DNA from: an uncultured Alphaproteobacteria bacterium
GTDB taxonomy: Bacteria > Pseudomonadota > Alphaproteobacteria > HIMB59 > GCA-002718135
NCBI GenBank assembly: GCA_902518705.1
Contig: CABYHW010000005.1
Location: 1,101 to 65,100 of the forward strand
Direction of reading: 5' to 3'
DNA length: 64,000 nt
Below are positions 2,223 through 61,614 of this stretch, piece by piece. Made by a program: the position numbers and the translations under genes. The first letter of the stretch is position 1; each line of letters starts with the position of its first letter. The notes beneath the pieces were generated by a model, which made no database searches, was not told where the DNA came from, and saw nothing but the letters and a program-made list of their open reading frames with translations.

Positions 2223-2956
2223 ATAAAATTAATTTAGAAAATAGAGTAGCAATTGTAACGGGTGGAGCACAAGGCTTTGGGTTAGCAATTACAAAAAGAT
2301 TTATAGAATCAGGTGCAAGAGTTCTAATATGGGATAAAGATACAGAATATTTAAATAAAGTTGATCTAAAAAATATTCAAAAAATTGAAGTTGATGTCTC
2401 AAATTATAAAAGTGTAGAGAATGCATTTGCCAAAAGTCTTACGCATGAAAACAAAATTGATATTTTAGTAAATAATGCAGGAATAGCTGGACCAAATTTT
2501 AAGACATGGGATTATCCACTCGAGGAATGGCAAAAAGTTATAGACATAGATCTAAGTGGAGTATTTTATTGCTGTAAAACTATAGTTCCTCATTTTATCA
2601 AAAATAATTATGGACGTATTGTTAATATTTCCTCCATAGCTGGTAAGGAAGGTAATCCTAATGCAATGCCTTATAGTGCAGCAAAAGCAGGAGTTATTGC
2701 ACTTACTAAATCTTTAGGAAAGGAATTAGCTGAAAATAATATTTCAGTGAATTGTGTTACCCCTGCACCTGCTAAGACACGTATTTTTGATCAAATTACG
2801 CAAGAACATATTGATTATATGCTATCAAAAATTCCAAGAAATAGATTTGTGTTAGTAGAAGAATTAGCTTCTTTAGTTGCATGGATGTCTTCTGAAGAAA
2901 ATTCTTATACCACTGGATCAACTTTTGACTTAAGTGGAGGTAGAGCTACTTATTAA
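2219..2956 (+). CDS. Short-chain dehydrogenase/reductase (FabG-like)
   Basis: TGGAQGFG cofactor motif, NNAG, catalytic YSAAK. 4-nt overlap with the upstream gene. Confidence 0.8.
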   Translation: MNKINLENRVAIVTGGAQGFGLAITKRFIESGARVLIWDKDTEYLNKVDLKNIQKIEVDVSNYKSVENAFAKSLTHENKIDILVNNAGIAGPNFKTWDYPLEEWQKVIDIDLSGVFYCCKTIVPHFIKNNYGRIVNISSIAGKEGNPNAMPYSAAKAGVIALTKSLGKELAENNISVNCVTPAPAKTRIFDQITQEHIDYMLSKIPRNRFVLVEELASLVAWMSSEENSYTTGSTFDLSGGRATY

Positions 2957-3930
2957 TTTTTTCTTCTTTGTATTAAAGCGTAAACTGTTACGGCTACTGT
3001 AATCATGAGTCCGTTAATAAATTTTACATAAAAACCAGATAAACCTAAAGCAACTATTCCTGATTCTAATGATCCAATAATTAATACTCCAATAAAAGTT
3101 CCAAAAATAGTACCTTTACCACCAAAGACTGAAGTGCCACCAACAAAGACGGCTGCTAGCGTTGTTAACATCAAACCTTCACCTTGTGTAGGCCAGAAAT
3201 ATAACATTTCATACATTGTAAAAATTCCTGCTAATGCAGAGAAAAATCCTAGTTGAACAAAAGCAATAATTTTTACATTATCGACGTTAATTCCCATCAT
3301 TTGAGCGCTTGCTTTGTTATCGCCTACAAAGTGGATATGATTTCCAAATTTATGGTATCGATAAACCCATTGCATCAATCCAGTTAATACAATGAACCAA
3401 ATAAATTGCATTGGAATTTTTCCAAATAATTTTTCAACAAATATCATATGATGCCATGTTCCATCTGCTACATCGACGATTGCAATACCGCTACCTTGAG
3501 AAATTACATTAACTAATCCACGCCAAAAAAATAATGTACCTATAGTGGCAACTATTGAAGGTATACCAATTTTAGTAACAAGTAATCCATTTACTAATCC
3601 CGCAAACATTCCAAGTGAAGTTGCCAAAATAAATGCTATAAAAAAGTTACCATCAGTCGATGTCATTATAATTCCAAATATGAGAGATGTAATTCCAACT
3701 ATAGATGGAAATGATAAATCAATTTCACCAAGTGTAACAACAAATGTTGCTGATATAGCAATAATTCCAAAAAAAGGCATTGATTGCATAAAAGCTCTAT
3801 AAATAGGAAATCTTGTAAATACATGTGGTGCACCAAGAAAATAAATTAGGAATAATACTACAGCAATTATAGTAATACTAATTTCAAGTTTGTGAGTTTT
3901 TACAAAATAACTATTTAATAAATTATTCAT
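2953..3930 (-). CDS. Sugar ABC transporter permease (RbsC/FrcC-type)
   Basis: 325 aa, strongly hydrophobic multi-TM protein with a glycine-rich C-terminal half typical of monosaccharide ABC permeases. It abuts the ATPase gene with a 0-nt gap. Confidence 0.8.
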   Translation of the reverse strand: MNNLLNSYFVKTHKLEISITIIAVVLFLIYFLGAPHVFTRFPIYRAFMQSMPFFGIIAISATFVVTLGEIDLSFPSIVGITSLIFGIIMTSTDGNFFIAFILATSLGMFAGLVNGLLVTKIGIPSIVATIGTLFFWRGLVNVISQGSGIAIVDVADGTWHHMIFVEKLFGKIPMQFIWFIVLTGLMQWVYRYHKFGNHIHFVGDNKASAQMMGINVDNVKIIAFVQLGFFSALAGIFTMYEMLYFWPTQGEGLMLTTLAAVFVGGTSVFGGKGTIFGTFIGVLIIGSLESGIVALGLSGFYVKFINGLMITVAVTVYALIQRRKN

Positions 3931-4698
3931 TTAATCTTCCACTTTTATTTTTCCTGATTCATGAAGTTGAATCATTTTTTGCACAAGTTCTTCTCTTGAA
4001 ATATCTTCTTTATTAAATTCCCCAACAACCTCACCTCTATCTAAAATAATAAATCTATCTGCAGCTCCATATACGTGTATAATATTATGATCGATAAATA
4101 TTGCAGATTTGTTTTCATTCTTTAAACCTTTTACAAAATTAAGAACTTTTTCTGTTTCTTGTATCGATAATCCCATTGTTGGTTCATCTAATACGATTAA
4201 ATCAGAATTAAAATACAATGATCTACCGAAAGCTACACCTTGTTTTTCACCACCAGAAAGTCCCATTACTTGAGAGTCAACTGTTATAGCTTTTGAAGTA
4301 AAGCCTATATAGTCGCGTAAAATTTTTTCTGCTTCTTTTCTTTGTTTTTTTATATCCAAAAAACCAAATGAATTTGTAATTTCTCTTCCTGCAAAGATAT
4401 TTCTGTATAATTCTTGCTGATCACATAATGCTCTTTCTTGATACACTGCTTCAATCCCCATTTTTCTTGATTGAGCAACTGATTTAATTTGTACTTCTTT
4501 CTCTTTAAAAAAAACTTTTCCCGAGTTTGGACTATGAACTCCAGTTATAACTTTAATAAGTGTAGATTTTCCAGCTCCGTTATCACCGATTAAAGCTACT
4601 ACTTCACCTTTGTTTATTTTGATATTCACATCTTTTAAAACTTTTACGTTTCCAAAGTTTTTGTAAATATTTTGTAATTTTAAGAGTTCTTCAGCCAT
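3931..4698 (-). CDS. Sugar ABC transporter ATP-binding protein (single NBD, FrcA-like)
   Basis: Walker A GDNGAGKST, signature LSGGEKQ, Walker B LIVLDEPT. At 255 aa it is a single NBD, not the fused double NBD of RbsA. Confidence 0.9.
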   Translation of the reverse strand: MAEELLKLQNIYKNFGNVKVLKDVNIKINKGEVVALIGDNGAGKSTLIKVITGVHSPNSGKVFFKEKEVQIKSVAQSRKMGIEAVYQERALCDQQELYRNIFAGREITNSFGFLDIKKQRKEAEKILRDYIGFTSKAITVDSQVMGLSGGEKQGVAFGRSLYFNSDLIVLDEPTMGLSIQETEKVLNFVKGLKNENKSAIFIDHNIIHVYGAADRFIILDRGEVVGEFNKEDISREELVQKMIQLHESGKIKVED

Positions 4699-4707
4699 AA
4701 AAATAAA

Positions 4708-4730
4708 CCTGCCTTATAAAATAAGGCAGG
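4708..4730 (-). terminator. Intercistronic stem-loop between the binding-protein and ATPase genes (partial terminator or mRNA stabiliser)
   Basis: Perfect 9-bp stem CCTGCCTTA / TAAGGCAGG with a 5-nt loop, sitting in the 46-nt spacer directly after the SBP stop codon. Confidence 0.55.
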
Positions 4731-4744
4731 CTATATTATTTAAT

Positions 4745-5725
4745 TTATCTGATTTGTACTGCTGCTAATGGAGCAACAGCATCAACGTTATCAGCTGTAA
4801 CAAATGCAGCACCAGTATCCATTGCTAATCCAGCCATTCCATATTTTGTACTTAGGAATAACTGAACAATTGGCATATATCCTTGGATAAATGGTTGTTG
4901 ATCAATTACAACGTCAATGTATCCAGAATTAATTCCGTCAACAATTGGAGCTGATAAATCAAATCCAGCACCACATACTTCTTCAGTACCATGACCTGCA
5001 GCCTTCATATATGTTGGTAAACTTGCAGTTAATCCACCATGATCTGTAATAGCCATTTTGATATCAGGATTTGCACTATAAGTAGCAACGTACATAGGAG
5101 TTCCCTGTGATGCATCTGAGTTTACATTATCAGGAATTTCTTGATAAACTACTTCAACACCTGCTGCTTCAACACCAGCTATTGCACCTTTAGTTCTTTC
5201 TCCTCTGTTTGGCATACTTGCAAGACCCCAGATAAAAGCTTTATCTCCAGCTTGTAGACCACAAACTTCAACTGCTTTTTTACCTAGATTAAATCCAGCA
5301 TCAAATAGATCTGCGCCTGCATAACCAAAACCTTCAGTTTTATATTCTGATTCAAGATCAGGAAGAGGTGTATTCATAGTAGTAATTACTATTCCCATTT
5401 CTCTAGCTTCTTGAATGATAGGTCTCATTGCAGCGTCTCCTGGAAAACCATAGATTGCAATTCCATCAGGCTGTAAAGCAACAGCTTCTTTAAATTGTTT
5501 AATCATGATTTCTGAATTCCACTGTGACCAGTAGTAATCTACTTCACAACCAGTGTGTTCAGCAGCAGCTACTGCACCATTGTAAACGATAGTTCCAAAT
5601 GGACCACCTTCTGGACCACCTGGGAAAAATATAAATTTCTTATCACAGCTGTAATCATTTTTTGCTACTGCTGAAGAAGATGCAAAAGCAAAAAATAAAG
5701 CAATGACTGCAAAGATTTTTTTCAT
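4745..5725 (-). CDS. Periplasmic sugar-binding protein (type I PBP, RbsB/FrcB-like)
   Basis: Signal peptide MKKIFAVIALFFAFASSSAVA. PBP-1 fold-like sequence. I prefer the ATG at 5725, preceded by GGAGGA, over the track start at 5749. The protein is Ala/Gly-rich and its DNA is visibly more GC-rich than neighbouring genes. Confidence 0.8.
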   Translation of the reverse strand: MKKIFAVIALFFAFASSSAVAKNDYSCDKKFIFFPGGPEGGPFGTIVYNGAVAAAEHTGCEVDYYWSQWNSEIMIKQFKEAVALQPDGIAIYGFPGDAAMRPIIQEAREMGIVITTMNTPLPDLESEYKTEGFGYAGADLFDAGFNLGKKAVEVCGLQAGDKAFIWGLASMPNRGERTKGAIAGVEAAGVEVVYQEIPDNVNSDASQGTPMYVATYSANPDIKMAITDHGGLTASLPTYMKAAGHGTEEVCGAGFDLSAPIVDGINSGYIDVVIDQQPFIQGYMPIVQLFLSTKYGMAGLAMDTGAAFVTADNVDAVAPLAAVQIR

Positions 5726-5914
5726 AATTCCTCCAAATATTTTATGCATTAATTTATAAGTAAATAAATCAATAATACAATTAAATTAAAGTATTAAAGT
5801 TCTTATTACAAATTAAATTCACCTTTCTTTTGATAGATAAAATAGTCGCACTTATTTACCAATATAAAGCAATTTTTATATTTATAAGATTATCAAAAAG
5901 TGTTATTTTTGACC

Positions 5915-6901
5915 ATGGATGTTGATTTAGGTAAATGGTATCGAGCAAATATAGATAAAAAAGAATTCAAGCAATTATGCAAGAAATCTGATTGGCAGGG
6001 TTTTAAGCATATGATTATTTATTTTTCATCTCTATTTCTTTTTGGATATCTTGCGTATGTCACTTGGGGCACTTGGTGGTCATTATTATTCTTTATAATA
6101 TATGGAAATATTTGGGGATGCAGTGATGCTATATGGCATGAAACTGGTCACAGAACTGCTTTTAAATCTAAATTCTGGAATGATTTCTTTTATTATATTG
6201 CTAGTTTCATGGATAATTTTGAACCTATCAGATGGAGATATTCTCACTACCATCATCATACATATACTCAATTCAATGATCCTGTAGATTTTGAAATACA
6301 TGTAAAAAAACCAACTGATTTAATAGTATTTTTTTCTCACTACGTTCCATTCTCTGGTTTTATTTTCTTTAAAAATTCTCTTCAATGGGAAACTATAAAA
6401 CATGCATTTGGTGTTACTACTGATGTAATGAAGGTTTGCATTCCGGAAAATGAAAGATGGAAATGTAGATTATCTGCGTGGAGTCATCTCTCTATCTGGA
6501 TAATAAGCATAGCTTCTTCAGTTTACTTTCAAAGTTGGCTTCCAGTTCTATATGTTTTATTACCTAATTTTTATGGAAAGACCCTTGTGATGCTTATGGG
6601 TCTAACTCAACACGCAGGACTTAGAGAAGATAAAAGAGACCATAGATATACAACCAGAACAGTGTATTTAAATCCAGTTTTAAGTTTTTTATATTGGCAT
6701 ATGGAATATCATGTTGAACACCATATGTTCCCTCAAGTTCCCTCACATAATTTACCTAAACTGCATGCTATGATTAAAGAACAATTACCACCTGCTAGAA
6801 AAGGTCTTCTTGGGGCTTATAAAGAAATTATTCCAGCACTCATAAAACAAGCAAAAAATCCTGACTATCAAATTCCATTATCTGTTCCAAGCAACGCTTA
6901 G
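5915..6901 (+). CDS. Membrane histidine-box di-iron oxygenase (fatty acid desaturase family), paralogue 1
   Basis: His boxes HETGH, HYHHH and HVEHH, with TM segments. Start moved to the ATG at 5915 (MDVDLGKWY), which aligns with the N-terminus of paralogue 2 (EVDLKTWY). Confidence 0.8.
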   Translation: MDVDLGKWYRANIDKKEFKQLCKKSDWQGFKHMIIYFSSLFLFGYLAYVTWGTWWSLLFFIIYGNIWGCSDAIWHETGHRTAFKSKFWNDFFYYIASFMDNFEPIRWRYSHYHHHTYTQFNDPVDFEIHVKKPTDLIVFFSHYVPFSGFIFFKNSLQWETIKHAFGVTTDVMKVCIPENERWKCRLSAWSHLSIWIISIASSVYFQSWLPVLYVLLPNFYGKTLVMLMGLTQHAGLREDKRDHRYTTRTVYLNPVLSFLYWHMEYHVEHHMFPQVPSHNLPKLHAMIKEQLPPARKGLLGAYKEIIPALIKQAKNPDYQIPLSVPSNA

Positions 6902-6906
6902 ACTGA

Positions 6907-8136
6907 GTGAAAAATAACATTATAATTTTAGGCGGTGGTCAAGCTGGAATCTATGCTGCTAGAGAAATTAGGCAAAATGATTTAAAATCAAATATTAAAA
7001 TTTTAGGTGAGGAAAATTTATTACCATACGAAAGACCTCCTCTATCTAAAGATTTTTTGCTAGATAAAAAAAATGAAGAAGATCTTTATTTTCATTCTAG
7101 CGACATACTAAAAAATGAAAATATAGAATTTGAAAATGTATCAATTTCTAAAGTTGATTTTGAAAATAAAAAACTTTTTGCAAAAAATGATGATGTTTAC
7201 TCTTATGATAGTTTGCTTATTTCAACAGGTTCTGAAAATAAAAAACTTAGTTTAGATAATAATTTAAAGGATGATGTTTATTATCTAAGAAATTTAGAAG
7301 AAGCCAAAAAAATTAAAGAAATAGTTTCAAATAAAAATAAAATAACAATTATTGGCGGTGGCTTCATTGGCTTAGAAATTGCCTCATCTTTATCTCAGCT
7401 TCAAAAGAAAGTAATTGTTATCGAAATTGGTAATCAACTTATGGGAAGAATTATACCCAAACAAATTGCTGATTTAGTTCAAAACACTCATTTAGAACAT
7501 GGAAATGAAATAATATTAAATAAACAGATAGAAAAAATAACTAAAAAAAATGGCATTTATGAAATTTTATTAAATGATAATTCTTTAATAGAAACAGATT
7601 TTGTAATTGCAGGTATAGGCTCAACCCCTGCTGTAAAGTTATTTGAAAATACAAATTTAAAGCTTGATAATGGTATAGTAACTAATCAATTTTGTGAAAC
7701 TTCTATTAAAGATGTTTATGCAGCAGGTGACGTATCTAATTTTTATCATCCATTCTATGAAAGAAATATGCGACTCGAGTCTTATCAACATGCACAAAAT
7801 CATGGAATATGTGCTGGAAAAAATATTGCTGGAGTAAAAACAGAATATACATCAATTCCTTGGATGTGGTCTGATCAATTTAATTTGAATCTTCAACTGA
7901 CTGGTATTTGTGATGAGTATGATGAAATCATCGAAAGAGGTAATGATATTAATAATGGTGTTATTTATTTTTTCCTAAAAAATAACAAAATAAGAGGAGC
8001 ATGTGGTGTTGGAGTCATAGGAAAAGTAGGACGTGACATTAGAATAACTTCTAAATTAACTGAGAAAGATACCATTGTAGATAAACAAATTCTCTCAGAT
8101 CAAAATCTAAAATTAAATAAACTTATACAAAAATAA
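6907..8136 (+). CDS. FAD-dependent NAD(P)H:ferredoxin reductase (pyridine nucleotide-disulfide oxidoreductase family)
   Basis: Two Rossmann motifs, LGGGQAG and IGGGFIGLE, plus AAGDV. The 409-aa size matches BphG/TodA/putidaredoxin-reductase-type proteins. Confidence 0.8.
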   Translation: MKNNIIILGGGQAGIYAAREIRQNDLKSNIKILGEENLLPYERPPLSKDFLLDKKNEEDLYFHSSDILKNENIEFENVSISKVDFENKKLFAKNDDVYSYDSLLISTGSENKKLSLDNNLKDDVYYLRNLEEAKKIKEIVSNKNKITIIGGGFIGLEIASSLSQLQKKVIVIEIGNQLMGRIIPKQIADLVQNTHLEHGNEIILNKQIEKITKKNGIYEILLNDNSLIETDFVIAGIGSTPAVKLFENTNLKLDNGIVTNQFCETSIKDVYAAGDVSNFYHPFYERNMRLESYQHAQNHGICAGKNIAGVKTEYTSIPWMWSDQFNLNLQLTGICDEYDEIIERGNDINNGVIYFFLKNNKIRGACGVGVIGKVGRDIRITSKLTEKDTIVDKQILSDQNLKLNKLIQK

Positions 8137-8188
8137 CAATTTAATTATTTTGTATTTATTTTCATAAAATAGCTATTATATACAATCT

Positions 8189-8506
8189 ATGTCTGAAGAA
8201 AATTGGATTGAAGTAGGGTCTACAGATAGTATTGAAGAAGAGGATCTCATCAGATTCGATCATCAAGATAAAACTTTTTGTGTGTATAGGCTAACAGATG
8301 GTTTTTATGCCACTGATGGAATTTGTACACACGAGGCGGTACATCTTGAAGATGGTTTGGTTATGGATGATGAAATTGAATGTCCAATGCACCAGGGAAT
8401 TTTTAATATTAAATCCGGAGAAGCTTTAAGTCCACCAGCGTGTGAGGATTTAAAAACATATCCAGTTAAAGTTGATAATGACAAAATTTTCATTAAGATA
8501 GATTAA
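8189..8506 (+). CDS. Rieske-type [2Fe-2S] ferredoxin
   Basis: CTHEAVH ... CPMHQG (CxH-N-CxxH). The 105-aa size matches BphF/TodB-type electron carriers. Confidence 0.85.
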   Translation: MSEENWIEVGSTDSIEEEDLIRFDHQDKTFCVYRLTDGFYATDGICTHEAVHLEDGLVMDDEIECPMHQGIFNIKSGEALSPPACEDLKTYPVKVDNDKIFIKID

Positions 8507-8525
8507 CTATTTTTTTGGAGATTTT

Positions 8526-9353
8526 ATGAGCAGAAAAAAACTTACAGTTTATGATTATTTGCAATGCAAAGGTAAAAGACAACTAAGTGTTATGTTTGTG
8601 CATAATGCTGATGAAGCTGCAGCAGCTGAAGAGGCAGGCATTGACATGATTTGTACTTCTCATGATGCTCCACAATTTGGTATTTTCAATTCTTTTGATG
8701 AGCTTAAGCGAATTCGCGAGGCTGCACCAACTTGCTTTATGCAATCCGGAGGAGCAGTAAGAGTAGCTTCTGAATACGAAGCAATGAAACTATCACACAA
8801 GTATTTAGACATTGGTGCAGATGTTATCTATGGTGGTAATTGGAGTTACAAATGGATTAGAGCATTAAGAGATGAGTATGTTCCAATTAATAGTCATGTT
8901 GGATTAGTTCCAGGAAATGCTACTTGGATTGGAGGATTTGTTGCACAAGGTAAAACAGCAGATAAAGCCATAAGAATATTAGAACATACTCTTGAGTTAC
9001 AAGAAGCAGGTGCTATTGGAGTTGAACTTGAAGTAGTCCCACCAAAAGTTGCAGAAGTTATTACAAAAAAAGTTGATATCATGACTCTCTCAATGGGAAG
9101 TGGTTCTGGATGTGATGGGCAATATTTATTTGCTAATGATGTACTCGGATATACTCAGGGAAAAATTCCAAGACATGCGCGAATTTATAGGGATTTTAAA
9201 AAAGAATTTTCAAAACTACAAGCTGAAAGAGTAAGTGCATTCAAAGAGTTTCACGATGATACGGTAAACAAAAAATTTAATGATCCTAAAATCACAGTTA
9301 ACATTGATGAAGGTGAATTTGAAAAATTTTTAAAGCTTTCAGAAAAATTTTGA
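8526..9353 (+). CDS. PanB-like protein (ketopantoate hydroxymethyltransferase family, divergent N-terminal half)
   Basis: The C-terminal half matches my recollection of E. coli PanB: VPINSHVGLVPGN..GGFVAQGK and ELEVVP versus VPVCGHLGLTPQS..GGYKVQGR and LVLECVP. The N-terminal GDSLGM-type motif is not recognisable. GGAG lies 7 nt upstream of the ATG. Confidence 0.6.
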   Translation: MSRKKLTVYDYLQCKGKRQLSVMFVHNADEAAAAEEAGIDMICTSHDAPQFGIFNSFDELKRIREAAPTCFMQSGGAVRVASEYEAMKLSHKYLDIGADVIYGGNWSYKWIRALRDEYVPINSHVGLVPGNATWIGGFVAQGKTADKAIRILEHTLELQEAGAIGVELEVVPPKVAEVITKKVDIMTLSMGSGSGCDGQYLFANDVLGYTQGKIPRHARIYRDFKKEFSKLQAERVSAFKEFHDDTVNKKFNDPKITVNIDEGEFEKFLKLSEKF

Positions 9354-9356
9354 TTA

Positions 9357-10373
9357 ATGTTTGCGGGTGAAGTTGATTTAAAAACTTGGTATAAACCAAA
9401 AATAGATAAGAAAACTTTAAAGGAACTTTCTAAGAGATCGGATATAAAAGGTTTATTAGATATATCTATATTTATTGTTGCTCTAATATTATGTGGATAT
9501 CTATGTATTTTAAGTTGGGGTACTTTATGGTTAATACCTGCTCTTTTGCTTTATGGAAATATTTTCTATTGTAAGATCATAAGCATTCAACATGAAACAA
9601 ATCACGAAACATATTTTAAAACAAGAGCGTTAAATAAATTTTTTTATCATATAACTTCTTTACTCGGTGGTTTTGAAGCAGTTAGATGGAAGTGGAGTCA
9701 TTTTCATCACCATACTTACACTATATTTACACATGAAGAGGTCTACGATTATGAAAATAATAGTCCAAAACCAACAGAACCTGTAAGATTTCTTTTAAAT
9801 TTTTTACCTCTTGGTCCAATAATTAATATTCAAAAAATAAGACATTTTACACATTTTGAAATTATTAAACATTCATTTGGGATAATTACTCCTGTTGTAA
9901 AAGTTACAGTACCTGAAAAGGAGATAAAAAAAATTATTAATAGTTCAAGATTATATTTAAGTTTTTGGTTGCTTGTAATTTTATGTTCAGTTTTGTTACA
10001 ATCATGGCTACCAATAATAATGATAATTTTACCTCCATTTTATGGTAATACTATATTAATGATATGCGGCATGACTCAACATGCTGGACTAGCTGATAAT
10101 ATTAAAGATCATAGAAAAAGTACAAGAACCGTTATTATGAATCCCTTTTTTAGTTTTTTGTATTCAAATATGGAGTATCATATTGAGCACCACATTTTCC
10201 CAAAAATCCCTTGCCATAATCTAAAAAAATTTCACAAAATAGTTAAAAATCAAATGCCAGAACCTCATAACGGAATAATTTCTGCTTATAGATCAATAAT
10301 CCCAGCAATATTTAAGCAATCTAAAGATAAAAATTATTTTATTGATGTGAAGGTTCCAGATACGACAATTTAG
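9357..10373 (+). CDS. Membrane histidine-box di-iron oxygenase (fatty acid desaturase family), paralogue 2
   Basis: His boxes HETNH, HFHHH and HIEHH. Collinear similarity to 5915-6901 along the whole length. Confidence 0.8.
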   Translation: MFAGEVDLKTWYKPKIDKKTLKELSKRSDIKGLLDISIFIVALILCGYLCILSWGTLWLIPALLLYGNIFYCKIISIQHETNHETYFKTRALNKFFYHITSLLGGFEAVRWKWSHFHHHTYTIFTHEEVYDYENNSPKPTEPVRFLLNFLPLGPIINIQKIRHFTHFEIIKHSFGIITPVVKVTVPEKEIKKIINSSRLYLSFWLLVILCSVLLQSWLPIIMIILPPFYGNTILMICGMTQHAGLADNIKDHRKSTRTVIMNPFFSFLYSNMEYHIEHHIFPKIPCHNLKKFHKIVKNQMPEPHNGIISAYRSIIPAIFKQSKDKNYFIDVKVPDTTI

Positions 10374-10411
10374 TCTCTTTTTTTTTATTCAAAATATACT
10401 ATAGATATATT

Positions 10412-11416
10412 ATGGTAAATCAATTAAATGATAGTGATTTTGGTACAAGGGATAAAAGAGGTCATTGGAAACCATTTGGTACAATAAGTATTAACCCACC
10501 TAAAGATATATTTTTTAACCCTATAAAATTTTTTAAGTATTTTTTTAAATTTCCGGGGATTTTTTTCCCATGGACCTTTGTCTTTGCAGCAATAACAGTT
10601 GCTACATATCTTTTTTTGACTCCTTCTTTAGAGACAATGAAGACTTTTGAAATAGGATGGATATCATATATATTTTTCAGAAATGCAGTTATTATTTTAC
10701 TTTGGACAGGCTTCTTTCATTTAAGACTGAAGACACAAGGAACTTCATTTAAATATAACCCACGACCTCTAGAAAAAAATAACTCAACTTTTTTATTTAA
10801 TGATCAGACTAAAGATAACTTATTCTATACTTTTTGTAGTGCCATTCCATTATGGACAGCTTATGAAGTAATTACATTCTGGGCATTTGCAAATCAAATT
10901 ATCCCGTATGTAAGCTGGGAGGCGTATCCAATATATTGTTGTTTTATGTTCTTTCTTGTTCCATTTATAAGAGACGCACATTTTTACTTAACTCATAGAC
11001 TATTGCACTGGGCACCACTTTATAAAATTGCACATAAAGTACACCACCGTAATACTAATACAGGTGCTTGGTCAGGTATGTCTATGCATCCAATAGAGCA
11101 CATACTATATTTTTCAGGTATCTTAGTTCATTGGATAATCCCTTCACATCCTCTTGTTGCCATGTATCATGTATTTCATGCTGGTTTAGCACCTACACCT
11201 GGACATACAGGATATGAAAAAATGACTTTCAAAAATGGTGTATCAATTCCAACAGGTGATTATATGCATTATATTCATCATAAATATTTTGAATGCAATT
11301 ACTCAGGTGGAAATACTAGTTTCTTAGATAAACTAATGGGCACGTTCCATGATGGATCTGAAGAGGCAACAAAAGAAGTAATGGCTCGTATCAAAGATAA
11401 AGCCCATTACCTCTAA
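10412..11416 (+). CDS. Fatty acid hydroxylase / sterol desaturase superfamily membrane protein
   Basis: His motifs HRLLH, HKVHHR and HYIHHKYF, with several TM helices. Confidence 0.75.
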   Translation: MVNQLNDSDFGTRDKRGHWKPFGTISINPPKDIFFNPIKFFKYFFKFPGIFFPWTFVFAAITVATYLFLTPSLETMKTFEIGWISYIFFRNAVIILLWTGFFHLRLKTQGTSFKYNPRPLEKNNSTFLFNDQTKDNLFYTFCSAIPLWTAYEVITFWAFANQIIPYVSWEAYPIYCCFMFFLVPFIRDAHFYLTHRLLHWAPLYKIAHKVHHRNTNTGAWSGMSMHPIEHILYFSGILVHWIIPSHPLVAMYHVFHAGLAPTPGHTGYEKMTFKNGVSIPTGDYMHYIHHKYFECNYSGGNTSFLDKLMGTFHDGSEEATKEVMARIKDKAHYL

Positions 11417-11460: not shown

Positions 11461-12336
11461 ATGAGTAAGGTCGAATTATATAAAGATGTAAAAAATAGTT
11501 TAGGAGAAGGTATTACTTGGTCTTCAATTGATCAAAGTTTACTTTGGGTAGATATAAAACCAAAATCAGTTTTATTCAGAATTAATTTAGATAACGTAAA
11601 ATTAGAAACTTTTGATTTACCTGATTTTGTAACAGCGACGTCAATAATCTCAGAAAATGAAATTGCTTTAGTCTCAAATAATGGCGTAAATAAATTTAAC
11701 TTTCAATCTAAAAAATATGAAAGAATAATTAATGTTGAAGATGATATTGCAACAAATAGATCTAATGACGGTGCATCAGATGCTAAAGGTAGACTTTGGT
11801 TTGGGACGATGCAAAATAATTTTAATCAAGATGGAAGTGCAAAATCTTTAAATGCTAAATCTGGTAGTTTATATTGTCTATCTGATAATAAGGTAAATAT
11901 TGTTGAAACAAATCTAGGTATACCTAATACATTTGTTTGGAGTCCAGATAACACGAAATTTTATTTTGCCGATACAACTGAGGGATCATTACTAGAATAC
12001 AATTTTAACCTAGATGAAGGTAGTTTGTCAGACAAAAAAAACTTCTTCGATTTTGATAGAGGTGCTCCAGATGGATCAACTATTGATAGTGATGGTTTTA
12101 TTTGGAATTGTCGTTGGGGTGGATCATGTGTAGTGAGAATAGACCCCAAAGGAAGAATAGATAAAATTTACGAACTGCCTGTTGAAAATGTAACAAATTG
12201 TGTATTTGGAGGAAGTGATCTTAAAACTTTATTTATTACAAGTGCTACTAATTCAGGTAAAAATCAATATGATGGTAGTTTATTTGCATTAAATGTTAAT
12301 GTACCTGGCCTTGAAGATAATAAATTTAAAATTTGA
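11461..12336 (+). CDS. SMP-30/gluconolactonase/LRE-family lactonase
   Basis: 291 aa, beta-propeller-like. LGEGITWS near the N-terminus and PDGSTIDSDG / NCVFGG motifs typical of sugar lactonases. Confidence 0.75.
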   Translation: MSKVELYKDVKNSLGEGITWSSIDQSLLWVDIKPKSVLFRINLDNVKLETFDLPDFVTATSIISENEIALVSNNGVNKFNFQSKKYERIINVEDDIATNRSNDGASDAKGRLWFGTMQNNFNQDGSAKSLNAKSGSLYCLSDNKVNIVETNLGIPNTFVWSPDNTKFYFADTTEGSLLEYNFNLDEGSLSDKKNFFDFDRGAPDGSTIDSDGFIWNCRWGGSCVVRIDPKGRIDKIYELPVENVTNCVFGGSDLKTLFITSATNSGKNQYDGSLFALNVNVPGLEDNKFKI

Positions 12337-12368: not shown

Positions 12369-14102
12369 ATGAATAAAAAAAATAAATTTAGATCTTCTAA
12401 TTGGTATAATTCTAAATCACATCGAAGAGATACATTTATTCACAGAGGCTGGATGAGAAATCAAGGTCATCCAAATCATTTGTTTGATGGTCGTCCTGTA
12501 ATTGGAATTTGTAATACTTGGTCAGAATTAACTCCATGTAATGGTCATTTCAGAGAGATAGCAGAGTCTGTTAAAAAAGGTGTTTATGAAGCTGGCGGTT
12601 TTCCTCTTGAATTCCCTGTTTTTTCAGCAAGTGAATCCAATTTAAGACCTACAGCTATGTTGTTTAGAAATTTAGCAAGTATGGATGTTGAAGAGGCGAT
12701 AAGGGGCAATCCAATAGACGGAGTCGTATTATTAATGGGGTGTGATAAAACAACACCTTCATTAATGATGGGAGCTGCTAGTGTAGATCTTCCCACAATA
12801 GGTGTTTCAGGCGGCCCAATGCTTAATGGACATCATCAAGGTGAAACAATAGGTTCTGGCACTGGTGTTTGGAAACTTGATGCAGATTTAAACGCTGGTG
12901 TAATTACAGAAGAAGATTTTATTAATGCAGAAATTTCAATGAGTAGATCAAAAGGTAATTGTATGACTATGGGTACTGCATCTACAATGGGATCAATGGT
13001 GGAAGCATTAGGGATGTCGCTACCCGGAAATGCTGCGATACCTGCAGTTGACTCAAGAAGATATGCTTTAGCTCATATGTCAGGGAAAAGAATTGTTGAA
13101 ATGGTTAAGGAAGATATAACTATGTCAAAAGTTGTTACAAAAAAATCATTTGAAAATGCAATCAAGGTCAATGGAGCAATAGGGGGATCTACAAATGCAG
13201 TTATCCATCTAGCTGCAATCGCAGGTCGAATGGAAATAGATTTAGATTTAGAAGATTGGAATAAATGTGGAGATGGCATTCCAACATTAGTTAATCTACA
13301 ACCTTCTGGAAAATACTTAATGGAAGATTTTTATTATGCAGGTGGTGTTCCTGTAGTTATAAAAAGATTAATGGAAAAAAATCTATTAGAAGAAAATGAA
13401 ATGACTGTTAATGGAAAAACTATAGCTGAGAATAATATGAATGCAAAATGTTGGAACAATGAAGTTATCAAAGAATTTGAAAATCCATTAACAAAAAATG
13501 GAGGGATTAAAATTCTCAGGGGTAATATTGCTCCAAATGGTGCAATTATTAAACCATCAGCAGCATCGCCTGAATTAATGAAACATACTGGAAAAGCTAT
13601 AGTTTTTGAAAGCGTAGAAGAGTTTCATGAAAAGATTGATGATCCTAATTTAGAAGTTGATGAAAATTCAATATTAGTTTTAAAAAACTGTGGGCCGAAA
13701 GGTTATCCTGGTATGGCCGAAGTTGGAAATATGAGACTACCACAAAAAGTACTTAAGAAAGGTGTGAGAGACATGATTCGAATATCTGATGCTAGAATGA
13801 GTGGAACAGCATATGGTACAGTAATACTTCATACAGCTCCAGAAGCTGCTGTTAAAGGTCCTTTAGCAGCGGTTCAAAATGGTGATGAAATAGAAGTTGA
13901 TGTTGATCAAGGTACAATGAATTTAAAAGTTGATGATGAAACAATAAAAAAACGTTTGGAAAATTATTCACCTGTTGTTCCAGAAATCACAGGTGGTTAT
14001 CAAAAAATGTATGTAGAACATGTAATGCAAGCTGACAAAGGAGCAGATTTAGATTTTCTAATTGGAAAAAGAGGTGCTGAAGTAAAAAGACATAGCCATT
14101 AA
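12369..14102 (+). CDS. IlvD/Edd-family dehydratase (probably a sugar-acid/pentonate dehydratase rather than IlvD)
   Basis: GCDKTTPS and GNCMTMGTAS Fe-S cluster region, and SDARMSGT. 577 aa. It sits next to a lactonase rather than branched-chain amino-acid genes. Confidence 0.8.
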   Translation: MNKKNKFRSSNWYNSKSHRRDTFIHRGWMRNQGHPNHLFDGRPVIGICNTWSELTPCNGHFREIAESVKKGVYEAGGFPLEFPVFSASESNLRPTAMLFRNLASMDVEEAIRGNPIDGVVLLMGCDKTTPSLMMGAASVDLPTIGVSGGPMLNGHHQGETIGSGTGVWKLDADLNAGVITEEDFINAEISMSRSKGNCMTMGTASTMGSMVEALGMSLPGNAAIPAVDSRRYALAHMSGKRIVEMVKEDITMSKVVTKKSFENAIKVNGAIGGSTNAVIHLAAIAGRMEIDLDLEDWNKCGDGIPTLVNLQPSGKYLMEDFYYAGGVPVVIKRLMEKNLLEENEMTVNGKTIAENNMNAKCWNNEVIKEFENPLTKNGGIKILRGNIAPNGAIIKPSAASPELMKHTGKAIVFESVEEFHEKIDDPNLEVDENSILVLKNCGPKGYPGMAEVGNMRLPQKVLKKGVRDMIRISDARMSGTAYGTVILHTAPEAAVKGPLAAVQNGDEIEVDVDQGTMNLKVDDETIKKRLENYSPVVPEITGGYQKMYVEHVMQADKGADLDFLIGKRGAEVKRHSH

Positions 14103-47783: not shown

Positions 47784-50204
47784 ATGTTTGTAAGCGTGGT
47801 CAAAATAAATAAATACTTAATTTACCTTTTCCTATTTTTATTTTTCAATTGTATTCATATTGGCCCTATTATAGCAGCTGACACGTCATACGATAATATC
47901 TATTATGATGTACCTACAGGAAAGGCACAATATATAAGAGGCATAACTTTCAATAATGATGGAACTAAAATGTTCATAACTGGCGGGAAAGTAGCTCAAT
48001 TTACTTTATCAACTGGATTTGATTTATCATCAACAATTGGGACAAGTTTAGATAGCTTTAATGCCGGACTTGCTCCTCAAGATATTAGATTTAATAATGA
48101 TGGTACAAAAATGTTCCTTGCGCCTCACAGCAGTTTTGATTTGAGACAGTATTCTCTAAGTACAGCTTTCGATGTTACAACAGCAACCAGTGATGGTGTT
48201 GATTATGAATTATCAAATCGTAACGCGACTAATCCAGGTTCTGTGGGTTTAGCATTTAACAGTGATGGTACTAAAATGTTTACTACTGATTCTGCTAATG
48301 GAGGTGAGATTGATGAATACAGTTTATCAACTGGATTTGATTTATCATCAGTCACATATGTGCGTACTTTATCTATTTCAAGCAATACTGGCGGTGATCC
48401 AAGATCATTGATATTTAGTCCTGATGGAACGACAATGTTCATTTTGGATAGTGAGGAAATTGATGAATATGTCTTAACTACAGGTTATGATCTTTCAACT
48501 GCTAAATATGCAGATACTTTTGCAGCAGGTACGACGAAAGCTTGGAGTATTGCATTAAATAATCAAGGAACAAAATTATTTATTGCTCAAAACGATAACA
48601 ATAGGGTGAGACAGTATTCATTACCTGCAGCCTATAATTTAACAACGCCAACTCTTAGTTCTTCAGTACCAGCAGATAATGCTACTGGTGTTTTAATAGA
48701 TGCTAATATAATTCTAAATTTTAGTGAACCGATGGATGTAGAAAGTGGCAATATAAAAATTTATAAAACATCTGATAATTCTCTTGTTGAAACAATAGAT
48801 GTCACCAGTAGTCAAGTAACAGGTACTGGAACAACTGCCATAACAATTAATCCTAGCTCAGATTTTGAATATAATGTTGAATATTATGTTTTAATTGATG
48901 CCACAGCTTTTGATGACGGAAGTGATGCTTCTTATGCTGGTATAACATCAACAACGGCTTTAAGTTTTACTGTTAGCGATGATAGGTTGGATCCAACAAC
49001 AATTAAAGATGTTGTAGGCTCCATAGATGCGCAAAGTGAATTAGCAAAAAACTATATTAGTCAGTCTATTGATACTGTCTCAAATCGTTTACGATTTTTA
49101 AGACAAAATAGATTAAGTGATTCTTTGTCGAGCCAAGGTTTACAATTAGATATTGATAATAACATTCTTGCCTCATTAGCAAATGATAATATAGAAAAAA
49201 ATGCCAATTCCATTATGCCAGGTAATTGGTCTGCATGGACATCTGGATCAACTTATGTATCAAAAATTGGTGATAGTATAAATTCATCAAAACAAGAAAC
49301 TGAAGGTCAAGCAGTAGCATTAGGATTTGATAAAAAATTAAGTGATAGTGATTTTCTTGGTTTTGCTATTCAGTATGGTGAAAGTGATACGGATATTGGA
49401 ACAAATGGAACAAGTGTTGATAGTGAAAATATAAATTTCTCTATTTACCGAGCAAGGCCACTTGATAATAATAATTTTATCGAAACACTATTAGGCATAG
49501 GGTTAATAGAAAGTGATTTGAAAAGAGTCCATAATTCTAATGTATTAACTGGGACGCGGGATGGAACACAAATATTTGGCTCTATCAATTACGGTAAAAC
49601 AATTGATAAAGGTGATTTTAATATAACACCAATTGGACGTCTTGATTTAGGTTATACTAAACTTGATGACTACAAGGAGACTGGATTAAATGCGTTGTAT
49701 TATGCAAGTCAGAGAATTGAGAGTGGATTAGCCTCATTTGGTTTTGAAGTTAGTGATAATATTCAGTTTAATGAAAATAAATTTCAACCATTTGGATCGC
49801 TTAAATTTATTACTGATTTTAGTAACAAATCTGATGCCAAGATCAATTATGTAACAGACACTTCAACAATTTATACTTATACGCAAGAAGCTAATTCAGA
49901 TCATTTAATCAGCTCTATGATTGGGTTAACATTTATTGCTGGAGATTATTTAAATATTAACTCTAGTTATAGTAGGGTTCAAGGTAACAGGAGTGAACGT
50001 AGAGATACTATAGATTTTGCTATTAACTTTATATCAAATCGTGAGACACAATACAGTCTGTCATTAGCTGGTGATGAAAACACAGAGGCTAAACTTGGTA
50101 TATCAAAAAATATATATGGTTTTGATTTAGGGTTTAATGCTAATCAGTCTATTAGTAATAATTCTAATCAAGAAGCAGAATTAATACTCACGTACAATTT
50201 TTAA
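47784..50204 (+). CDS. Autotransporter (type Va) outer-membrane protein: signal peptide, 5 propeller-like repeats, Ig-like domain, helical linker, beta-barrel
   Basis: Signal peptide ending IIAAD. Repeats of consensus FNNDGTKMF...Y.LST.FDLSS. An Ig-like module (LSSSVPADNATGV...ALSFTV). A C-terminal half of alternating-hydrophobic beta-strands ending ELILTYNF (terminal Phe). Confidence 0.75.
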   Translation: MFVSVVKINKYLIYLFLFLFFNCIHIGPIIAADTSYDNIYYDVPTGKAQYIRGITFNNDGTKMFITGGKVAQFTLSTGFDLSSTIGTSLDSFNAGLAPQDIRFNNDGTKMFLAPHSSFDLRQYSLSTAFDVTTATSDGVDYELSNRNATNPGSVGLAFNSDGTKMFTTDSANGGEIDEYSLSTGFDLSSVTYVRTLSISSNTGGDPRSLIFSPDGTTMFILDSEEIDEYVLTTGYDLSTAKYADTFAAGTTKAWSIALNNQGTKLFIAQNDNNRVRQYSLPAAYNLTTPTLSSSVPADNATGVLIDANIILNFSEPMDVESGNIKIYKTSDNSLVETIDVTSSQVTGTGTTAITINPSSDFEYNVEYYVLIDATAFDDGSDASYAGITSTTALSFTVSDDRLDPTTIKDVVGSIDAQSELAKNYISQSIDTVSNRLRFLRQNRLSDSLSSQGLQLDIDNNILASLANDNIEKNANSIMPGNWSAWTSGSTYVSKIGDSINSSKQETEGQAVALGFDKKLSDSDFLGFAIQYGESDTDIGTNGTSVDSENINFSIYRARPLDNNNFIETLLGIGLIESDLKRVHNSNVLTGTRDGTQIFGSINYGKTIDKGDFNITPIGRLDLGYTKLDDYKETGLNALYYASQRIESGLASFGFEVSDNIQFNENKFQPFGSLKFITDFSNKSDAKINYVTDTSTIYTYTQEANSDHLISSMIGLTFIAGDYLNINSSYSRVQGNRSERRDTIDFAINFISNRETQYSLSLAGDENTEAKLGISKNIYGFDLGFNANQSISNNSNQEAELILTYNF
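47931..48647 (+). repeat. Five tandem 47-55-codon repeats inside the autotransporter passenger
   Basis: ITFNNDGTKMFITGG..QFTLSTGFDLSS / IRFNNDGTKMFLAP..QYSLSTAFDVTT / LAFNSDGTKMFTTD..EYSLSTGFDLSS / LIFSPDGTTMFILD..EYVLTTGYDLST / IALNNQGTKLFIAQ..QYSLPAAYNLTT. Confidence 0.8.
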
Positions 50205-50209
50205 AAATA

Positions 50210-51280
50210 CTAATTTAGTTTATCTTTACGGTAATTAGATCGTATTTCATCTAGTAGGATTGATTTAGACTTGTTCTTTACATGCCAAAAATCCCATCCA
50301 TTACAACTTGGTAGTCCTTGTATCTTTGCTCCCATTTGATGAATAGAACCTGATAAATCTTTTATTTTAAGTGTACCATCAATACTAACCGTTGCTCTAA
50401 AGCGTTCTTTTTTATCTGTTAATACGGCGCCGGGTGGGATAATTCCTTGCTCGACTAATTCACCAAAAGGAACTTTTGGTAATTCTTTTCTACTTTTGGC
50501 AATAGTCACAACTTCTTCTTTTAACACTTTTGTATTCTTTAATCGTTCTTTTGAAAGTTTAACGTAATCTTTATCTTTTTCTATTCCAATAAAGTTACGT
50601 TGTAATTTCTTTGCAACAACCGCAGTTGTCCCACTTCCAGAAAAAGGATCAAGAACAAGATCACCTTTGTTTGTTGAGGCTAATAGAATTCGGTAGAGTA
50701 GAGCTTCTGGTTTTTGTGTTGGGTGTGATCGTTGATTGTTATCTTTACGTAATCTTTCTTTCCCTGAACAAATAGGAATATACCAGTCACTACGCATTTG
50801 TTTTCCTTCATTTAGTTCTTTGAGATTTTGATAGTTGAATGTGTATTTTGCCTCTCTTGATGTTGTGCACCATAAAAGTGTTTCATGGGCATTTGTGAAA
50901 CGTGTACCACGAAAGTTTGGCATAGGGTTTGTTTTATGCCAAATAATATCATTCAAGATCCATAAGCCTTCATCTTGGATTGTAGAACCTACACGTAAAA
51001 TATTATGATAACTCCCTATGACCCAAAGCGCTCCACCTTTTTTTAAAACACGTTTACATTCATTAAGCCATGCATTGGTAAATTGATCATATTCTTTATA
51101 TGTGCTAAATTTATCCCAATCTTGTGTAACAGCTTCTACTGTTGTTTGATCTGGTCTGTATAATGTATCTTTTAATTGAAGATTGTATGGCGGATCAGCA
51201 AAAATAAGATCAACCGAATGATCTTTTAGTTTTTTCATTTTCTTAATTGAATCGCCTAAAATGATCTGATTTTTCTTCAT
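50210..51280 (-). CDS. ccrM: Cell-cycle-type N6-adenine DNA methyltransferase (GANTC-specific CcrM family)
   Basis: Beta-class motif order: FADPPYNL (motif IV) comes before [13 protein letters not shown] (motif I). The 356-aa size and ~80-aa C-terminal extension are as in CcrM. Confidence 0.85.
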
Positions 51281-57958: not shown

Positions 57959-58046
57959 TTTTTTTTGAATTTATTTATATTATCAATTTACTTATTCGTA
58001 TAACATCATACTATTATAAAGTGGTCAAGTTAGTTTTATATAAATA

Positions 58047-59051: not shown

Positions 59052-59052
59052 G

Positions 59053-59832: not shown

Positions 59833-59845
59833 GTGATATTAATTA

Positions 59846-61597: not shown

Positions 61598-61614
61598 ATA
61601 AAGGGAGAAATATT

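Follow-up and report, generated by a model that had tools for sequence, protein, structure and literature searches.

Within a 64 kb window (the whole stretch of DNA analyzed here, ~30% G+C) from a SAR11-type marine alphaproteobacterium, six genes at positions 5915-11416 probably encode a MocDEF-type three-component membrane demethylase system, equipped with three terminal oxygenases and embedded in an island of genes for sugar uptake and catabolism. The gene content and motifs of this cluster, its homology to genuine MocD, MocE and MocF, and its conserved synteny are plain from the comparisons below.

A MocDEF-like gene set with three membrane oxygenases

The six co-directional open reading frames lie on the + strand where the initial annotation had placed them, and its description of the gene set is accurate in every point. 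The first product, D1 (5915-6901, +), is a MocD-like membrane di-iron oxygenase (PF00487 FA_desaturase, E = 1.5e-32, 113.8 bits against a cut-off of 29.7); a GTG at 5900 is an alternative start, but the ATG at 5915 agrees better with its paralogue and homologues. It is followed by F (6907-8136, +), a MocF-like, FAD-dependent NAD(P)H:ferredoxin reductase (Pyr_redox_2 and Reductase_C, E = 6.5e-60), by E (8189-8506, +), a MocE-family Rieske-type [2Fe-2S] ferredoxin of 105 amino acids (Rieske Pfam, E = 7.9e-17), and by a PanB-like TIM-barrel protein (8526-9353, +) that matches Pantoate_transf (PF02548, E = 1.8e-37) at profile positions 91-256 of 259 only. A second MocD-like membrane di-iron oxygenase, D2 (9357-10373, +; PF00487 FA_desaturase, E = 2.4e-34, 119.7 bits against 29.7), and a membrane di-iron oxygenase of the FA_hydroxylase superfamily, FAH (10412-11416, +; PF04116, E = 1.3e-19, 71.3 bits against 31), complete the set. 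The short spacing reported earlier is also correct, the spacers being 5, 52, 19, 3 and 38 nucleotides in gene order. No terminator-like site was found between 5600 and 14300, which agrees with co-transcription as one transcript, though it does not prove it. A sigma-70 promoter scan is uninformative at this base composition (50 sites seen against 49.7 expected), and Rfam (at the gathering score) and tRNA scans of the window found nothing; hence, no riboswitch offers a hint at the ligand.

D1 and D2 are indeed collinear paralogues (45% identical, E = 3e-111). The histidine boxes HETGH/HYHHH/HVEHH, HETNH/HFHHH/HIEHH and HRLLH/HKVHH/HYIHH of D1, D2 and FAH, respectively, are all present, as is the CTH...CPMH motif of the ferredoxin. 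The MocD-type boxes (H75/H79, H111/H114/H115, H266/H269/H270) show no variation in 22 sequences, and those of FAH (H195/H199, H208/H211/H212, H286/H289/H290) none in 23. By hydropathy, D1 and D2 each possess two long hydrophobic hairpins, as in membrane desaturases, and FAH has four or five hydrophobic segments; the reductase, the ferredoxin and the PanB-like protein appear to be soluble.

The passages on rhizopine in several papers describe MocD, MocE and MocF as the "ferredoxin oxygenase complex" of rhizopine catabolism, consisting respectively of an FA_desaturase-like "hydrocarbon oxygenase", a Rieske-like ferredoxin and a ferredoxin reductase (PMC2593844, PMC5132102, PMC10107442, PMC13434037, citing Bahar et al. 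1998, 2000). As related in those passages, the complex turns 3-O-methyl-scyllo-inosamine into scyllo-inosamine, a function based on genetic evidence and in the literature since 1998 (PMC13434037, PMC2593844, PMC5132102); the complex is that of Rhizobium leguminosarum bv. viciae 1a and Sinorhizobium meliloti L5-30 (Bahar et al. 1998, 2000). Our reference loci for this system are on plasmids of Rhizobium lentis (L090; loci from other genomes carry such numbers throughout) and Phyllobacterium zundukense (L091). L090 is a genuine moc locus, since its regulator scores above the cut-off for the MocR equivalog (740 bits; cut-off 650) and is accompanied by iolE and purU, both passing their own models, and by a MocE-family ferredoxin scoring 178 bits on the model TIGR02377.

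The window's proteins are homologous to this locus throughout. Ferredoxin E is 61% identical to its MocE (E = 2e-48), D1 and D2 are respectively 40% (MAFFT alignment identity) and 35% (E = 1e-74) identical to its MocD over the full length, reductase F is 33% identical to its MocF over 410 residues (E = 3e-79), and the PanB-like protein is 41% identical to the product of the PanB-like gene that comes after mocF (E = 4e-66). Further, ferredoxin E, which carries CTHEAVH...CPMH and no other domain in its 105 residues, passes the NCBIfam model TIGR02377 ("MocE family 2Fe-2S type ferredoxin"), if narrowly (137.8 bits against a cut-off of 136.15). Because the ferredoxin passes this model and the D, E and F components are homologous to a genuine moc locus, the combination is not new: it had initially been taken for an undescribed and uncharacterized one, but the same arrangement is that of MocD/MocE/MocF, curated as TIGR02377 and published since 1998. 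A characterized homologue thus exists, but at 33-61% identity, with a different substrate and on genetic evidence, so that it amounts to less than a set of close orthologues of known function.

The two systems share the same three component types, the attached PanB-like gene and an adjoining sugar-type ABC transporter. They differ in gene order (D-E-F in moc as against D-F-E in the window), in the window's possession of two MocD paralogues along with an FA_hydroxylase-family oxygenase, and in host, which here is a genome-streamlined marine bacterium. The window's cluster also lacks purU nearby, and a test for a rhizopine locus failed: MocR, MocA and the IolE-like MocC were not found near the cluster. 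Downstream lie a lactonase and a sugar-acid dehydratase, in contrast to the inositol pathway of moc. Given the missing moc genes, the different downstream genes and a sugar-binding protein only 21% identical to its counterpart next to mocR, the substrate is not rhizopine. In our literature search, we found no report of MocDEF-type systems having been reconstituted or studied outside plant-associated bacteria.

The proposal that the Rieske ferredoxin and its reductase feed the histidine-box membrane enzymes is sound, being what the literature proposes for MocDEF, and it is supported by the recurrent neighborhood, by the pairing of FAH homologues with their own ferredoxin and reductase in Sinorhizobium, and by the window's lack of a Rieske oxygenase large subunit. 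The last of these had been noted before and holds: a six-frame scan of the 64 kb for CxH(14-24)CxxH matches ferredoxin E only. One might still suppose that the pair serves a soluble Rieske oxygenase, ring-hydroxylating or N-demethylating, that is encoded elsewhere, and that its position here is incidental. The sequence covered is 64 kb of the genome, reductase F has its best NCBIfam matches among the HcaD/AndAa ferredoxin reductases, and the AndAb and HcaC models give matches to the ferredoxin as well. However, all these dioxygenase-type matches fall below their cut-offs, whereas the MocE-family model is passed; there is no second Rieske motif within the window; and the pair recurs beside MocD-like or FAH genes in many unrelated genomes. 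We hence regard this possibility as very remote. A NirD-type role for the Rieske protein was likewise considered and rejected, as its score of 60 bits lies below the cut-off of 74.65 and there is no nirB.

The Pfam families of the oxygenases, FA_desaturase and FA_hydroxylase, would by themselves suggest lipid modification, i.e., acyl desaturation or hydroxylation, or a sterol- or hopanoid-like reaction, for which the ferredoxin and reductase serve as donors and to which the sugar genes are unrelated. In line with this, D1 and D2 give weak matches to the DesB and DesA desaturase models (38.2 and 20.8 bits for D1; 37.4 and 27.9 bits for D2), and homologues of FAH are named "sterol desaturase family". 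But the cut-off of each desaturase model is 500 bits, the nearest homologues of assigned function are MocD proteins, and the neighbors, across alpha- and gammaproteobacterial metagenome-assembled genomes (MAGs) and single-amplified genomes (SAGs) and one Chloroflexi genome, are sugar ABC transporters, LacI, iol genes, mutarotase and XylA2, never lipid synthesis. Consequently, we view a lipid substrate as distinctly unlikely.

The AlphaFold model of D1 (predicted local distance difference test score, pLDDT, 87) has the desaturase/AlkB fold. Its closest solved folds are desaturase-like subunits in cryo-EM structures of the Chlamydomonas Orf2971-FtsHi complex (8xks_K) and the Ycf2-FtsHi chloroplast import motor complex (8xqw_M), with TM-scores of 0.60-0.67; a search of PDB sequences with D1 gave no match. 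AlkB itself (8f6t) is a weak match (TM 0.45, E = 2e-3). This bears on a hydrocarbon monooxygenase of the AlkB/XylM kind, acting on alkanes, toluene or xylene. According to the moc literature, the original comparison of MocD was with XylM/AlkB-type hydroxylases (PMC5132102, PMC13434037), and some annotations read "hydrocarbon oxygenase MocD". AlkB-rubredoxin and XylM-XylA also share with the window's enzymes the superfamily fold, the eight-histidine di-iron site and a multicomponent organization with a soluble iron-sulfur carrier. Their carrier, however, is a rubredoxin or a plant-type ferredoxin-reductase fusion and their substrates are hydrophobic, whereas a context of alcohol or aldehyde dehydrogenases or of beta-oxidation was not seen here, only sugar transport and catabolism throughout, and the better fold matches of D1 are to desaturase-like proteins ahead of AlkB. 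There is thus little likelihood of such an activity. Among the best NCBIfam matches of D1 and D2 is GntB, the L-arginine gamma-hydroxylase of guanitoxin biosynthesis, which is like them an FA_desaturase-family membrane enzyme and acts on a small polar molecule. Yet they score far below its cut-off (NF041365; 31 and 47 bits, respectively, against 380), and pathway and context are different.

The third oxygenase, FAH, has homologues at 45-58% identity in Sinorhizobium, Rhizobium, Bauldia, Dongiaceae and Chloroflexi, which carry the sterol desaturase name where databases name them. In Sinorhizobium sp. (L097, 5205-10144), a MocE-type ferredoxin (53% identical to the window's), a Reductase_C-type reductase, LacI, an FA_hydroxylase (52% identical to FAH) and a sugar-binding protein lie together with no MocD-like gene. 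Since the FAH homologue pairs there with ferredoxin and reductase independently of MocD, a second, unrelated membrane di-iron family apparently relies on this ferredoxin system to act on sugar-like substrates, which is new as far as the literature that we found goes. Bauldia and a HIMB59-labelled MAG also have orthologues of FAH beside MocD-like genes, and in the Chloroflexi genome the homologue is adjacent to a sugar ABC transporter, a Gfo/Idh/MocA dehydrogenase and a thiamine pyrophosphate enzyme. The predicted structure of FAH (pLDDT 72.6) yielded no PDB fold match with E below 9, and its PDB sequence search yielded none either. Sterol C4-methyl oxidase and alkylglycerol monooxygenase, whose targets are methyl or ether carbons, belong to the same Pfam family and have the same histidine motifs, but they are eukaryotic enzymes with lipid substrates and depend on cytochrome b5 or tetrahydrobiopterin. 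The second of them breaks its ether bond through hydroxylation of the carbon adjoining the oxygen, the very chemistry that we propose for the window's oxygenases.

Conservation and neighborhoods in other genomes

A conservation scan with one genome per species returned 79 loci, onto which the window's proteins were mapped, and gene order proved to be kept in related genomes. The full arrangement (short-chain dehydrogenase/reductase (SDR), transporter, D1, F, E, PanB-like, D2, FAH, lactonase, dehydratase) occurs in eight SAG/MAG species representatives with D1 97-99% identical, all "uncultured Alphaproteobacteria" of the AG- series, of which AG-899-L06 is nearest. The part from transporter to dehydratase is also found in two long lagoon contigs (L093, L094) with D1 86% identical. 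The core D-F-E-PanB-D2-(PanB)-FAH persists in L017, L018, L095 and L096, where the D1 homologue is 51-82% identical, and L081 retains F-E-PanB-D2-FAH; the D2 orthologue group as a whole spans L011-L018, L081 and L093-L096. In public sources, close homologues carry the label "Pelagibacteraceae".

Beyond these relatives, D, E and F gene types adjoin each other in rhizobial, roseobacter, Roseiarcus, Bauldia and many SAR11-type genomes, and a MocD-like gene stands next to both a MocE-type ferredoxin and a MocF-type reductase in the window, L001, L003, L084, L085, L089-L091 and L093-L096. A module of LacI, MocD-like, MocE, (reductase) and PanB-like genes recurs on S. meliloti pSymB, on plasmids of R. 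etli and Rhizobium sp. Kim5, and in marine Marivivens, where it adjoins iolG, iolC, iolD and a sugar ABC transporter. Neighbors were counted over 95 loci holding a MocD-like gene, from Rhizobiales, Rhodobacterales, SAR11-type lineages and one gammaproteobacterial MAG, which are non-independent samples. A PanB-like gene lies within 2.6 kb of a MocD-like gene in 44/95 loci and a MocE-type ferredoxin within the same distance in 31/95; a sugar-type ABC transporter is found within 3 kb in 47/95; 21/95 belong to a proteorhodopsin-linked subtype; and 5/95 show none of these four associations.

The proteorhodopsin-linked subtype comprises 21 Pelagibacter species representatives (L046, L027, L030-L036, L039-L044, L047, L049, L052-L054, L064), in which a MocD-like gene ~52% identical to D1 comes directly after proteorhodopsin. 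In Pelagibacter ubique HTCC8051 (L046, 7155-13103), for instance, the genes after the MocD-like one encode a plant-type Fer2 ferredoxin, a thioredoxin-reductase-like reductase, a GST and two Gfo/Idh/MocA dehydrogenases, and there is no PanB-like gene. As these copies adjoin plant-type Fer2, the MocD-like family evidently also runs on another electron chain. MocDEF-type systems are abundant and diversified among SAR11-type marine genomes, where individual protein clusters count hundreds to thousands of members from metagenomes.

Two further observations concern these neighborhoods. In L095 and L096, a gene for an HxlR-family regulator (8188-8580, -) is inserted between the reductase and Rieske ferredoxin genes. 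The founder of this family controls a formaldehyde-inducible operon; the regulator may accordingly be a weak hint of a link to formaldehyde, possibly through formaldehyde-responsive control. Separately, a XylA2-type isomerase (PF27526) adjoins MocD-like/PanB-like pairs in marine genomes (L006 11932-13245, L007, L029, L076), and a linkage of mocDEF and xylA2 has been reported in woody-host Pseudomonas syringae (PMC5132102, PMC13434037).

A PanB-like protein as a proposed fourth component

The PanB-like gene is the most faithful neighbor of MocD-like genes in marine loci, even where no ferredoxin or reductase is nearby (L006-L010), and it lies directly beside 37 of 130 MocD-like genes. In both genuine moc loci (L090, L091; 12747-14488), a PanB-like gene comes after mocDEF, and next in line is purU, encoding formyltetrahydrofolate deformylase. 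In the moc literature that we searched, no mention was found of a PanB-like gene or purU in connection with moc or rhizopine, and the sole match joining "rhizopine" with "hydroxymethyltransferase" concerned serine hydroxymethyltransferase. One-carbon (C1) or folate genes stand beside the module only in Rhizobiales (purU in L090, L091 and L084) and in none of the marine loci.

The protein is homologous to E. coli PanB (1M3U) and its relatives over the C-terminal two thirds but differs from them in its membrane oxygenase neighbors and in its active site. It fails the curated PanB models (117.6 bits against 272 on NF001452; 102.6 against 207.55 on TIGR00222), as does the copy in L090. We aligned seven PanB-like proteins with E. 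coli PanB and PDB PanBs; in E. coli PanB, whose numbering is used here, Mg2+ and the keto acid are bound by Asp45/Ser46, Asp84, Lys112 and Glu114. The KIEGG motif, bearing Lys112 and Glu114, is replaced by IYGGN or VYCAA in 7/7 of the PanB-like proteins, Asp84 is not conserved, and the region of the GDS motif (Asp45/Ser46) is shortened. His136, Glu181 and the G-x-G...D-x-Q segment are retained. Lys112 and Glu114 are robustly absent; for Asp45 the picture is uncertain, because the N-terminal alignment is only 22-29% identical and most sequences have an Asp or Glu nearby. In our reading, the keto-acid/Mg2+ half of the active site has been rebuilt and the other half retained.

RefSeq/GenBank name such proteins "3-methyl-2-oxobutanoate hydroxymethyltransferase" (L001, L004, L005, L090, L091), and the RefSeq records add a GO term for pantothenate biosynthesis. 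However, in the loci examined the genes never occur with panC or panD and are found with membrane oxygenases instead. We considered whether this gene might be the genome's real panB and rejected the idea in view of the missing catalytic residues and the invariable oxygenase neighborhood. Hence, the PanB naming of these proteins is probably a systematic misannotation.

What, then, might this protein do? The chemistry of PanB is a reversible transfer of a hydroxymethyl group between a carbon next to a carbonyl and tetrahydrofolate (THF). We infer that the PanB-like protein moves a C1 unit generated by the oxygenases onto THF, a role that fits with the adjacency of purU in the type loci, with the hydroxymethyl transfer to THF by PanB, and with the release of formaldehyde-level carbon by oxidative O-demethylation (compare PMC9400963). 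The duplication of the gene in step with the oxygenases also fits a substrate-specific role. To elaborate, L095 and L096 encode four PanB-like proteins with three MocD-like proteins and FAH, and in L013, L017, L018, L095 and L096 a second, divergent PanB-like gene, its product 44-47% identical to the first, sits between D2 and FAH. In the window, the second copy was lost or never gained, as only the 38-nucleotide spacer (10374-10411) remains at that place.

The same features may be read as pointing to C-demethylation. Here, the oxygenases would place a hydroxyl group on the C-methyl or deoxy carbon of some sugar or cyclitol (e.g., a branched or 6-deoxy sugar or a C-methyl inositol), and the PanB-like protein would remove the resulting hydroxymethyl group to THF by the reverse of the textbook PanB reaction. 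The pairing of paralogues (4:4 in L095/L096; a second copy in L013, L017 and L018) indeed suits a substrate-specific partner better than a generic formaldehyde scavenger, and Gfo/Idh/MocA dehydrogenases, which might make the neighboring carbonyl, are common neighbors. But with the Mg2+/alpha-keto acid residues missing (Lys112, Glu114, Asp84 and the GDS motif in all seven), an enolate-type retro-aldol cleavage would have no obvious catalytic apparatus. In addition, the window has one PanB-like gene for three oxygenases, and the sole homologous system of known substrate, going by the passage on it in PMC13434037, removes an O-methyl group. On balance, C-demethylation strikes us as improbable, if less so than the lipid alternative, and O-demethylation followed by transfer of the C1 unit is the reading that we retain.

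Sugar island, proposed function and implications

The cluster lies in a sugar/polyol island spanning ~2.2-23.4 kb of the window. Divergent from the oxygenase genes are those of a CUT2-type monosaccharide ABC transporter: a periplasmic sugar-binding protein (SBP; 4745-5749, -; Peripla_BP_4, 1.6e-30), an ATPase (3931-4698, -; syntenic with ABC_tran genes in L093/L094 and conserved in relatives) and a permease (2953-3930, -; syntenic with the BPD_transp_2 permease in L093/L094 and 98-100% conserved in L011-L014). The SBP matches NF052284, the model for rhizopine SBPs, weakly (83 bits; cut-off 420), and its closest solved relatives are distant monosaccharide SBPs (E = 5e-14 at best). Beyond the transporter is an SDR-family protein, a peripheral candidate sugar 1-dehydrogenase (2219-2956, +; adh_short/adh_short_C2, 2.9e-53), which adjoins the transporter in close relatives and comes after the dehydratase in L094. 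Downstream of FAH are an SMP-30/gluconolactonase-family lactonase (11461-12336, +; PF08450, 9e-72; syntenic in L011-L014, L062-L074 and L093-L094) and an IlvD/Edd-family sugar-acid dehydratase (12369-14102, +; ILVD_EDD_N and ILV_EDD_C; syntenic in relatives) that passes NF004784 (915.6 bits against 539) and scores 836 on the L-arabinonate dehydratase model, whose cut-off is 882. The island also holds a GlcD-like oxidase, an Ldh_2 dehydrogenase, a xylulokinase (passing TIGR01312), an arabinitol-dehydrogenase-like protein, a Zn-ADH and another SDR.

Elsewhere in the window, 57302-63719 is a second sugar-acid-type cluster, with genes for an RraA-like aldolase (-), a Gfo/Idh/MocA dehydrogenase, two SDRs, an HpcH/HpaI aldolase and a D-serine-dehydratase-like protein; between the two SDRs, a 319-residue protein (59846-60805) has no Pfam match at E <= 1e-12. 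At 47784-51280, an 806-residue autotransporter with a Big_5 domain, unexpected in a streamlined SAR11-type genome, precedes an N6/N4 DNA methylase that carries a RAMA domain and is encoded on the other strand.

From this setting and the homology to MocDEF, we advance the following mechanism, in which four elements are inferred: the O-demethylation chemistry, the class of substrate, the reliance of all three oxygenases on a common electron chain, and what the PanB-like protein does. A methylated sugar or cyclitol would enter via the divergent CUT2 ABC transporter (2953-5749). Electrons would pass from NAD(P)H through the FAD reductase (6907-8136) to the soluble MocE-type Rieske ferredoxin (8189-8506), which would hand them singly to the cytoplasm-facing di-iron centers of D1 and D2, and probably also of FAH. 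Each oxygenase, with O2, would then hydroxylate the carbon of a methyl ether to give a hemiacetal, which would resolve into the free hydroxyl sugar and a C1 unit at the level of formaldehyde. The PanB-like protein (8526-9353) would accept this unit, most likely onto THF, and the demethylated sugar would be oxidized through a dehydrogenase, the lactonase (11461-12336) and the sugar-acid dehydratase (12369-14102). A functional parallel is the P450/ferredoxin/ferredoxin-reductase system that demethylates 6-O-methyl-D-galactose in marine Bacteroidetes (PMC6292453, PMC9400963): it too is a three-component, O2-dependent oxidative demethylase of a methoxy sugar, encoded in a sugar-utilization locus and releasing formaldehyde. 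It differs in using a soluble heme P450 in place of a membrane di-iron enzyme and a different type of ferredoxin, and in routing formaldehyde via the ribulose monophosphate pathway, where we propose a PanB-like, possibly THF-linked enzyme for the window.

As to the substrates, the contexts point to carbohydrates that are small and neutral, namely methylated aldoses for the clade of the window and methylated cyclitols for other clades. This reading draws together the O-demethylation of an inosamine by MocDEF, the response of rhizobial mocDEF homologues to an exudate dominated by pinitol (PMC5789663), the iol genes, the rhamnose mutarotase that the HIMB59-labelled MAG version includes along with a PhyH dioxygenase, XylA2, and the contexts with lactonase, dehydratase and xylulokinase. 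Our literature searches for pinitol or methyl-inositol demethylases and for use of methylated sugars by SAR11 found nothing relevant.

Several points weigh against the assignment of a sugar demethylase system. The evidence for MocDEF itself is genetic, and the demethylase activity of the window's proteins is predicted by homology; at 35-40% identity to MocD, D1 and D2 may catalyze another reaction, for instance hydroxylating a C-H bond of a polar substrate or desaturating it, and GntB, a relative of MocD-like proteins, hydroxylates free arginine. The SBP, 21% identical to that of the moc locus, does not allow the substrate to be read from moc, and since the lactonase and dehydratase suggest an aldose but the surroundings in rhizobia and Marivivens suggest inositols, "methylated sugar or cyclitol" names a class and not one compound. 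Many MocD-like genes have no Rieske ferredoxin nearby, and throughout the Pelagibacter set proteorhodopsin, the plant-type Fer2 ferredoxin and the reductase were confirmed, so that Fer2 and no Rieske protein is used there. Finally, FAH is presumed to share the window's ferredoxin on the strength of the one Sinorhizobium locus and of adjacency.

A claim that the electron chain serving these membrane di-iron enzymes is of a new kind does not hold, the MocDEF arrangement being long known. The new aspects are the three terminal oxygenases from two superfamilies, the different substrate class, the marine oligotrophic host and the previously unrecognized fourth component, the PanB-like protein. More speculatively, and as a conjecture that we hold only tentatively and consider rather doubtful in its full extent, this remodeled PanB relative could be an obligatory partner of MocD-type (and perhaps FA_hydroxylase-type) demethylases, transferring their C1 units to THF, and methylated sugars could be a substantial substrate of SAR11.

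If the enzymes remove methyl ethers from sugars, they would represent a di-iron counterpart to the P450 enzymes that demethylate sugars in Bacteroidetes, and through them streamlined oligotrophs would both gain access to methylated sugars and make use of the methyl group. Were the PanB-like protein to act with THF, the methyl groups of methoxy sugars and cyclitols would enter THF-linked C1 oxidation rather than being lost as toxic formaldehyde, and the protein is therefore a candidate for new folate-linked C1 chemistry. Its misannotation as an enzyme of pantothenate synthesis would, moreover, distort predictions of vitamin auxotrophy for marine bacteria. In ecological terms, the expansion of oxygenase/PanB-like pairs beside SAR11-type sugar transporters, with up to four of each per locus, would on the same conjecture imply that methylated sugars in marine dissolved organic matter are a substantial and overlooked source of carbon and energy for the most abundant heterotrophs of the ocean.

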